Positions 218 through 575 of a stretch of 64,000 nt of DNA are shown one piece after another. The translations under genes were made by a program, and so were the position numbers. The stretch covers positions 75,392,001 through 75,456,000 of the forward strand of contig OZ024745.1 in the NCBI GenBank assembly GCA_964016885.1, given 5' to 3'. The DNA comes from Eledone cirrhosa. Its lineage: Eukaryota. The notes under the pieces were generated by a model. That model did not search any database and was not told the DNA's origin. It saw nothing but the letters and a program-made list of their open reading frames with translations. Every line of letters starts with the position of its first letter. Position 1 is the stretch's first letter.

Positions 218-575
218 AAGGGTATTTAATTTTTGGAACTCCGACAAATATAAATGTTTATAACTGATTTAGAGCACTCAACAGTATACTGGAGTAAATA
301 TTCAATGATATTAAATAAATGGAAACTATATTTATAAAACCATATTTATTTTATTATATATATTTCAAGGGTACCAAAAATCCCTAATATATTTCCACTA
401 TCCAGTGAATTTCCAACCGATAAGCTATGATTTTCATGGGTATGTCTCTATTTATAAAACAAACTTTGTATTTTATCTGATGAAAGCGTACCAATGTGTC
501 TTGGTACCCTTGAAATATATATAATAAAATAAATATGGTTTTATAAATATAGTTTCCATTTATTTAATATCATTG

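Follow-up and report, generated by a model that had tools for sequence, protein, structure and literature searches.

Twin hairpins beside both copy ends of Hydra-clade Penelope-like elements in Eledone cirrhosa, a likely RNA handle for the start of copying

The window that we have analysed is a stretch of 64,000 nucleotides from the genome of Eledone cirrhosa, in which eight hairpin strings of one recurring form are found, all of them at the places and on the strands given by an earlier sequence-only reading; for family G the hairpin is there, but the range 15355-15373 had omitted the last T, the range being 15354-15373. The eight strings are located in short two-armed insertions, which are flanked by (TA)n and have both of their 3' ends facing outward; a tail is present on one arm only, and putative hammerhead ribozyme cores are recognised in several of the arms. 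The features are listed here, where hairpin 1 is the proximal hairpin and PLE stands for Penelope-like element, together with hairpins from further copies of family C, of which the window holds at least six.

212..575, long arm on the minus strand and short arm on the plus strand: family A two-armed Hydra-PLE insertion in (TA)n
275..296, minus strand: family A hairpin 1 (proximal), in the tail
477..515, plus strand: hammerhead ribozyme core of the A short arm (CTGATGA...GAAA), a pattern match with putative activity
36101..36381: insertion of A2, an A subfamily, with a hammerhead core at 36245-36285 on the minus strand
36161..36182, minus strand: A2 hairpin 1
47843..48054: family C two-armed insertion
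47982..48007, plus strand: C hairpin 1
41404..41426, plus strand: C-variant hairpin 1
53629..53870: family F two-armed insertion, with hammerhead cores at 53673-53695 (minus strand) and 53730-53752 (plus strand)
53795..53815, plus strand: F hairpin 1
15322..15523: family G two-armed insertion, with hammerhead cores at 15409-15430 (minus strand) and 15458-15479 (plus strand)
15354..15373, minus strand: G hairpin 1, with a single-U bulge
53404..53590: family E two-armed insertion
53442..53487, minus strand: E hairpin 1
20891..21067: family H two-armed insertion
20955..20995, minus strand: H hairpin 1
7841..7864, plus strand: further C hairpin 1
16591..16614, minus strand: further C hairpin 1
21601..21624, minus strand: further C hairpin 1
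30095..30118, minus strand: further C hairpin 1, outer pair lost
41023..41046, minus strand: further C hairpin 1
53211..53234, minus strand: further C hairpin 1

The listings of inverted repeats and open reading frames (ORFs) for the window are dominated by microsatellites, and an Rfam scan of the window (E up to 1) returned 526 matches, of which the 150 listed all score below the gathering score; nearly all of these 150 belong to miRNA models, many within microsatellites. Coding-repeat fragments that resemble decayed retroelement pieces are located at 48384-48893 and 11322-12254.

The form of the motif has been compared across 22 family-level hairpins, with A2 and the cluster c16 left out as relatives of A. 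Its core consists of six fixed bases and a U, and its loop ranges from 3 to 82 nt. In G hairpin 2 the bulge is an A, and an insert of 82 nt is present. The bulge reads TT in 11 hairpins, TA in 4, TC in 4, T in 2 and A in 1; the bulge is thus U-N rather than strictly a pyrimidine, as the sequence-only reading had it. A reading of the motif as the DNA palindrome GAGYRCTC was dropped by eye because its commonest form, GAGCAC, is not self-complementary.

The stems vary in sequence and still pair, as had been proposed for the inner stem: the second inner pair is held in 19 of the 22 hairpins and the third in 14, with column-shuffle means of 9.8 and 7.8, while the first inner pair (22/22) is paired by construction; these statistics ignore the kinship of the families. 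The pair outside CUC/GAG is held in 18 of 22 (A-U in 7, G-C in 11; column-shuffle mean 13.2), and the earlier claim that the outer pair covaries stands overall but not for family H, where a T-C combination occupies this position in 28 of 28 copies. Pairing alternatives are also seen within families, at one inner position each in A and F: the third inner pair of family A is G-C in 32, A-U in 18 and G-U in 5 of 66 copies, and in hairpin 1 of the cluster c25 the core itself has changed from CUC/GAG to UUC/GAA in 54 of 56 copies.

The hairpin families had been described as six unrelated ones, and in this point the sequence-only reading has to be reversed: A, C, E, F, G and H each run into a Hydra-clade PLE ORF, while A2 is a relative of A and the C-variant is a relative of C. 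So as not to choose loci by eye, we have taken 99 ten-kb stretches at round-number positions in the same 3.0-Gb genome, where palindromes with a one-sided tail, called without the motif, gave 73 elements in 26 clusters. Long copies that lead into Hydra-type ORFs are found for A, C, E, F, G, H and the clusters c7 and c8, and the ORFs of A, C, E, F, G, H and c8 share 36-54% pairwise amino-acid identity. A reverse transcriptase (RT) followed by a C-terminal GIY-YIG endonuclease (EN) within one ORF of 619-722 aa is seen in G, to which A, C, E, F, H, c7 and c8 have been matched in pieces by tblastn. In a tree without E and c7, whose coverage is too short, the other six of these families make up a 100/100 clade that is separate from the three rows of Neptune type; no named Hydra protein is included in this tree.

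According to the available text of Craig et al. 2021 (PMC8557442), the features of the Hydra clade are a CxCX5C linker, a DKT type motif, an RWK-type motif and the absence of CCHH. In our families, the CxCX5C linker, and not CX2-5CxxC, is seen in A, C, E, G, H, c7 and c8; DK[TS] replaces DKG in the rows of A, C, F, G and c8; an RW[KR] N-terminal motif occurs in A, C, G and c8, and also at the 5' ends of F and E; and the endonuclease ends of G, A, C and H, inspected by eye, have no CCHH but CxxC before the conserved E and CxH after N. The putative hammerhead core pattern is found in A, F, G, H, c7, c8 and c25, the cores of C and E being variant or partly seen, and insertion into (TA)n is observed at 418 junctions, (TA)n itself being a calling criterion.

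Neptune/Nematis-type ORFs are linked to the families B, D, I, c12, c17, c18 and c20, and the CX2-5CxxC linker with CCHH is present in the hairpin-negative B, D, I and c18 and absent from the hairpin families. A Pfam search for GIY-YIG, which recovered mostly Neptune-type ORFs, served as a negative control, and protein matches followed to their 3' ends gave mostly short ends or none. The motif is scored in 38 of 42 tails from Hydra-linked clusters, against 0 of 20 from Neptune/Nematis-type clusters, and in 7 of 11 tails from unassigned clusters. On this sequence evidence, the hairpin families are distant relatives, all of them Hydra-clade PLEs, and the motif, given the difference between 38/42 and 0/20, is a character of the clade.

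The strict motif begins at most 13 nt from 16 of 19 family-level ends, where dinucleotide shuffles would lead us to expect 1.6; it was defined from some of the same sequences on which it was scored, and two of the 19 end positions (H-short and c15-short) were set by default at -7, the counting set having no junction there. In separate sets, the H-short end is seen at -6. The three misses are G-long, with its A bulge, c8-short, with an end at -16 that is known from two junctions only, and F-long. A core of six fixed bases and a U is short, and 78 of 998 random genomic TA sites have the motif after them, from which one might suppose a chance likeness among short AT-rich tails; the 16 of 19 ends against 1.6, the 0 of 20 tails in other clades and the presence of the motif in other phyla have already refuted this at the present sample size, and we give it next to no credence.

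Just past the end of the long arm and ahead of the ATG, a second hairpin is located; this holds for A, C, E, G, H, c8, c15 and c25, but not for F. In E, G, H, c8, c15 and c25, it lies within about 6-9 nt in copies that run past the long end, which were retrieved without querying the motif. For C and A, the pattern searches did query CTC...GAG and gave 330 matches for C (control 0) and 9 of 12 for A; the matches are near-identical to one another, and those inspected continue into the beginning of the ORF. In F, 13 of 15 fetched 5' ends span the long end and carry a plain short hairpin in place of the canonical one. The hammerhead comes first, followed by the short end with hairpin 1, then by the long end with hairpin 2, and lastly by the ATG. 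Both hairpins, 68-117 nt apart, are located in the 5' UTR, and about 25-85 nt separate hairpin 2 from the ATG; the tail is the stretch from the short end to the long end, of about 65-115 nt. Since the second hairpin marks the end of the long arm as well, the signal is not specific to the end of the second strand, as had been suggested.

The position of the hairpins relative to the element ends is fixed in the larger sample: of the 418 distinct junctions between element and (TA)n, 401 are found 1-13 nt 5' of either site, mostly 6-11 nt, in a count that covers nine families with references of 210-330 nt and ends within these references only, c7 being left out for want of a hairpin-2 reference. 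A canonical or near-canonical hairpin follows 372 of the 418, the remaining 29 among the 401 being long ends of F, with their non-canonical hairpin. When the count is limited to the window and the 99 position-chosen stretches, 126 of 133 junctions are located in the same intervals. It might be argued that the hairpins have a role in translation, in RNA stability or in the control of the hammerhead and that the nearby UA-rich linkers alone set the ends, in keeping with the 5' UTR location of both hairpins, hairpin 2 at the stated distance from the ATG, and with the long ends of F, which are as sharp as those of the other families despite the lack of a canonical hairpin 2. We consider this improbable: only 45 of the 227 TA dinucleotides of the references fall within the 1-13-nt intervals, yet nearly all ends are there, and the non-coding c25, described below, has retained its two hairpins together with the two end positions.

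Two-armed insertions without internal (TA)n consist of one long and one short arm in 102 of 102 distinct cases, with one end at each site, where free choice of site would give about half; in the window and the position-chosen set the count is 39 of 39. The same rule would follow if the cDNA from the long end folded back, copied itself and stalled at hairpin 1, thus giving the short arm; such a process would also explain the 44 of 85 resolved cases in which the two arms reach nearly equally far 5', and junction palindromes have been read as self-priming in the available text of PMC3846280. A fold-back copy cannot contain more than the first cDNA did, but in 19 of the 85 cases it is the short arm that extends further 5', by more than 25 nt and up to about 2.2 kb (in 22 cases it is the long arm), and in the family A insertion of the window (212..575) the short arm does so by about 125 nt. 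Fold-back, which also leaves hairpin 2 unexplained, is therefore largely refuted, unless those 19 cases represent later deletions in the long arm, and we regard it as highly improbable; since folding back of the long arm cannot yield a further-reaching short arm, both arms have likely been primed from the target.

With twin hairpins located a few bases past both copy ends, the hairpin is likely an RNA handle that sets the start of the copying enzyme. The reading that we prefer, with a probability of about 0.65, is that the RT would bind each hairpin and start cDNA synthesis just 5' of it, on one target strand each, which would give rise to the PLE tail. The GIY-YIG domain would nick both strands of (TA)n, and each nicked 3' end would pair with a UA that lies about 6-10 nt 5' of a hairpin; extension of one strand would begin at hairpin 2, copying hairpin 1 and giving the long arm with the tail, extension of the other would begin at hairpin 1 and give the short arm, and the two truncated cDNAs would join head to head, the tail being the stretch between both cDNA starts. 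The end-defining role in the earlier claim of a cis-acting signal is backed by the fixed position, the covarying stems and the conservation across proteins of 36-54% identity and across phyla, the part that named the second-strand end having fallen with the second hairpin.

Several points stand against a role of the hairpins in RT start. Family F has sharp ends without a canonical hairpin 2. Local folding of the free RNA gives a mixed picture, with CUC/GAG pairing of at least 0.7 in 12 of 24 hairpins and at most 0.2 in 8, while the first inner pair reaches at least 0.5 in only 2 of 24. Two of the six published Hydra consensus sequences are without a clear motif, and in the copepod one the core is changed. 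The unusual G hairpin 2, the lack of strand bias among sporadic variants, the PAc starts within the stem-loop region and the tail DNA needed by the D. virilis endonuclease, the last three of which are described below, count on the same side.

A dimer may, by further inference, hold both hairpins of one RNA, and we put forward, at somewhat less than even odds, that the two hairpins would be docking sites for the two subunits of an RT-endonuclease dimer, one per nicked strand, and that a two-hairpin tag of about 100 nt would suffice for any RNA, retrozymes included, to enter (TA)n. If true, this docking rule would by itself account for the tail of Penelope-like insertions as well as for their inverted structure.

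The closest biochemical system is the Poseidon element PAc, as described in the available text of Frangieh et al. 2024 (PMC11167929): the protein cleaves and extends both strands of AT-rich DNA, the RT has two internal starts on the RNA, which are the tail ends, hammerhead cleavage is not required, and a dimer is predicted. As in the Hydra families, two internal points bound the tail and a stem-loop is located at the start region, which by eye has an outer stem, a 3' bulge and an inner stem, too. In contrast, PAc belongs to another clade, differs in sequence and has one stem-loop, inside the ORF, with the starts within it, whereas the Hydra families here have a pair of hairpins, located in the 5' UTR, with the ends 5' of each.

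The fact that PAc RT itself starts at the two tail ends in vitro (available text of PMC11167929) also bears on a different explanation, in which the GIY-YIG endonuclease would read the hairpin in single-stranded or extruded DNA and a longer cDNA would be cut at a TA 6-10 nt away, resolving the insertion. The ends do fall at TA, the target dinucleotide of the nuclease; Craig et al. attribute the tail to EN-mediated resolution (available text of PMC8557442); the D. virilis EN needed tail DNA for cleavage, as cited in the available text of PMC11167929; and sporadic variants show no strand bias of the kind an RNA would leave (G-U in 30 copies, A-C in 31). Apart from the PAc starts, what stands against trimming is that family-level G-U pairs are found on the sense strand, in F hairpin 1 (44 of 56 copies) and in C hairpin 2 (4 of 10), which fits a transcript, albeit weakly. 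Taking both sides together, we judge the trimming of a longer cDNA to be unlikely, though it is the strongest competitor of the preferred reading.

The reading of the hairpins as RT start handles can be extended to c25, which consists of tandem units of about 550 nt with 18 putative type I hammerhead cores in 10 kb and forms an array of at least 25 units on C12 (L303/L304, C12:24507001-24522000). It has no tblastn match to four PLE ORFs, and its best 40 copies are 99-100% identical; judged from these data, c25 is a young, non-coding and apparently retrozyme-like unit. Dispersed c25 copies have their ends at -10 and -9 relative to the two hairpins, with 24 of 26 junctions in the expected intervals, and the two-armed insertions of c25 are long plus short in 6 of 6 cases. 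Further loci are L277-L291, and window position 18729 is a short end. PLEs have been proposed as the mobilising partner of metazoan non-LTR retrozymes (available texts of PMC7229834 and bioRxiv 10.64898/2026.07.22.740005), with which c25 shares the non-coding, hammerhead-bearing tandem unit; it differs by its unit of about 550 nt and by both Hydra hairpins, no cis signal being named in the searched parts of these papers, where 'stem-loop' is absent from both and 'hairpin' from the bioRxiv text. The ends of c25 fit PLE mobilisation of retrozymes, for which the hairpins would offer the cis signal.

Among published PLE consensus sequences, to which the sequence-only reading had pointed, the exact motif is present by eye in three of six Hydra consensus (PMC8557442, File S7), namely those of a coral (Hydra-2_Amil) and of a sea cucumber (Hydra-2_Ajap and Hydra-1_Ajap). 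In Hydra-1_Ajap, both hairpins are located at the 5' end, before the ATG; the copepod consensus has two hairpins with a changed core, and Hydra-1_Amil and Hydra-1_Obim show no clear motif by eye. A metagenome scan gave two loci, of which L191, a Hydra relative with 44% identity, carries a one-pair version before its ORF, while L190 is without the region.

Small structured RNAs that recruit their cognate RT are represented by the 3' stem-loops of LINEs and SINEs, the R2 3' UTR and the hepadnaviral epsilon, and inverted arms are also a product of L1 twin priming. The signals of LINEs and R2 are located upstream of a terminal start and are copied into the cDNA, whereas in the reading preferred here each hairpin would lie downstream of the start that belongs to it and would not enter the cDNA begun there.

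The Hydra clade as described in the available text of Craig et al. (PMC8557442) agrees with our families in its ORF motifs, its (TA)n targets, the hammerhead in the pLTR and the inverted 5'-truncated copy with a one-sided tail, and their own consensus sequences carry the hairpin; the tails are about 65-115 nt here, against 30-40 in their paper. The main text of that paper, in its available part, has no match for 'hairpin' and describes no tail hairpin. In the parts searched, an O. vulgaris repeat paper (PMC13282606) does not mention Hydra, hairpin or tail, PMC4209133 describes hammerheads and tails but no such motif, and PMC3846280, which also covers hammerheads and tails, has no match for 'hairpin' or 'stem'. 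The earlier statement that the motif had no description agrees with the literature searched, but has to be limited, as a stem-loop at an internal RT start is known in another PLE clade (available text of PMC11167929). The elements, the tail and internal initiation are already known; the hairpin and its twin were found in no description searched, although Repbase/Dfam, Arkhipova 2006, Pyatkov 2004 and supplements could still hold them.

The origin of the one-sided tail and the inverted arms of PLEs has been a question for two decades, and the one in vitro study reported two internal RT starts for which no signal had been defined. A motif that is short, covarying and present twice, beside both ends, permits a direct experiment, in which the hairpin is mutated, moved and rescued; it is also a candidate handle for non-coding retrozymes that borrow PLE enzymes, it helps to locate true ends and to classify short Hydra copies, and it offers a point of comparison for the setting of template boundaries by telomerase-related RTs.

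Several further observations concern single families. More hairpin-bearing families occur at L307:3127-6920, L294, L306 and L309; one of them is located behind a Hydra-type ORF and has an inner stem of 6 bp. For family C, no RNA holder is listed, and contigs X4 and X5 are uninformative on expression; its copies are also arranged head to tail in arrays, the unit being about 3.54 kb long, at C1:91476594-91487267 and C1:437200343-437210982. The E copy in the L185:912 region lacks, relative to L118 and L162, a long stretch of 3' UTR whose beginning is a GT donor-like site; no clean AG is present at the other boundary, and the gap could reflect either splicing or deletion.

Family B (window 613-949, 6541-6900 and 44957-45079) has a 60-nt tail without the motif; the linker of its parent endonuclease reads CX4CX2C, and this endonuclease shares no more than 25-29% identity with the Neptune ORF of L125. 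Neptune-type families (family D at window 10522-10854 and 28041-28400; also L114, L121 and L116) are without the hairpin; after both of their ends, a short family-specific word seems to be repeated, ACWCG-like in D and c18, as judged from one long-end copy each. The shortest palindromes are centred in or beside a hammerhead core (window 53240-53356, 53630-53795, 15276-15585, 16627-16729 and 30124-30240), and from these centres the core may be a preferred stop for cDNA synthesis.
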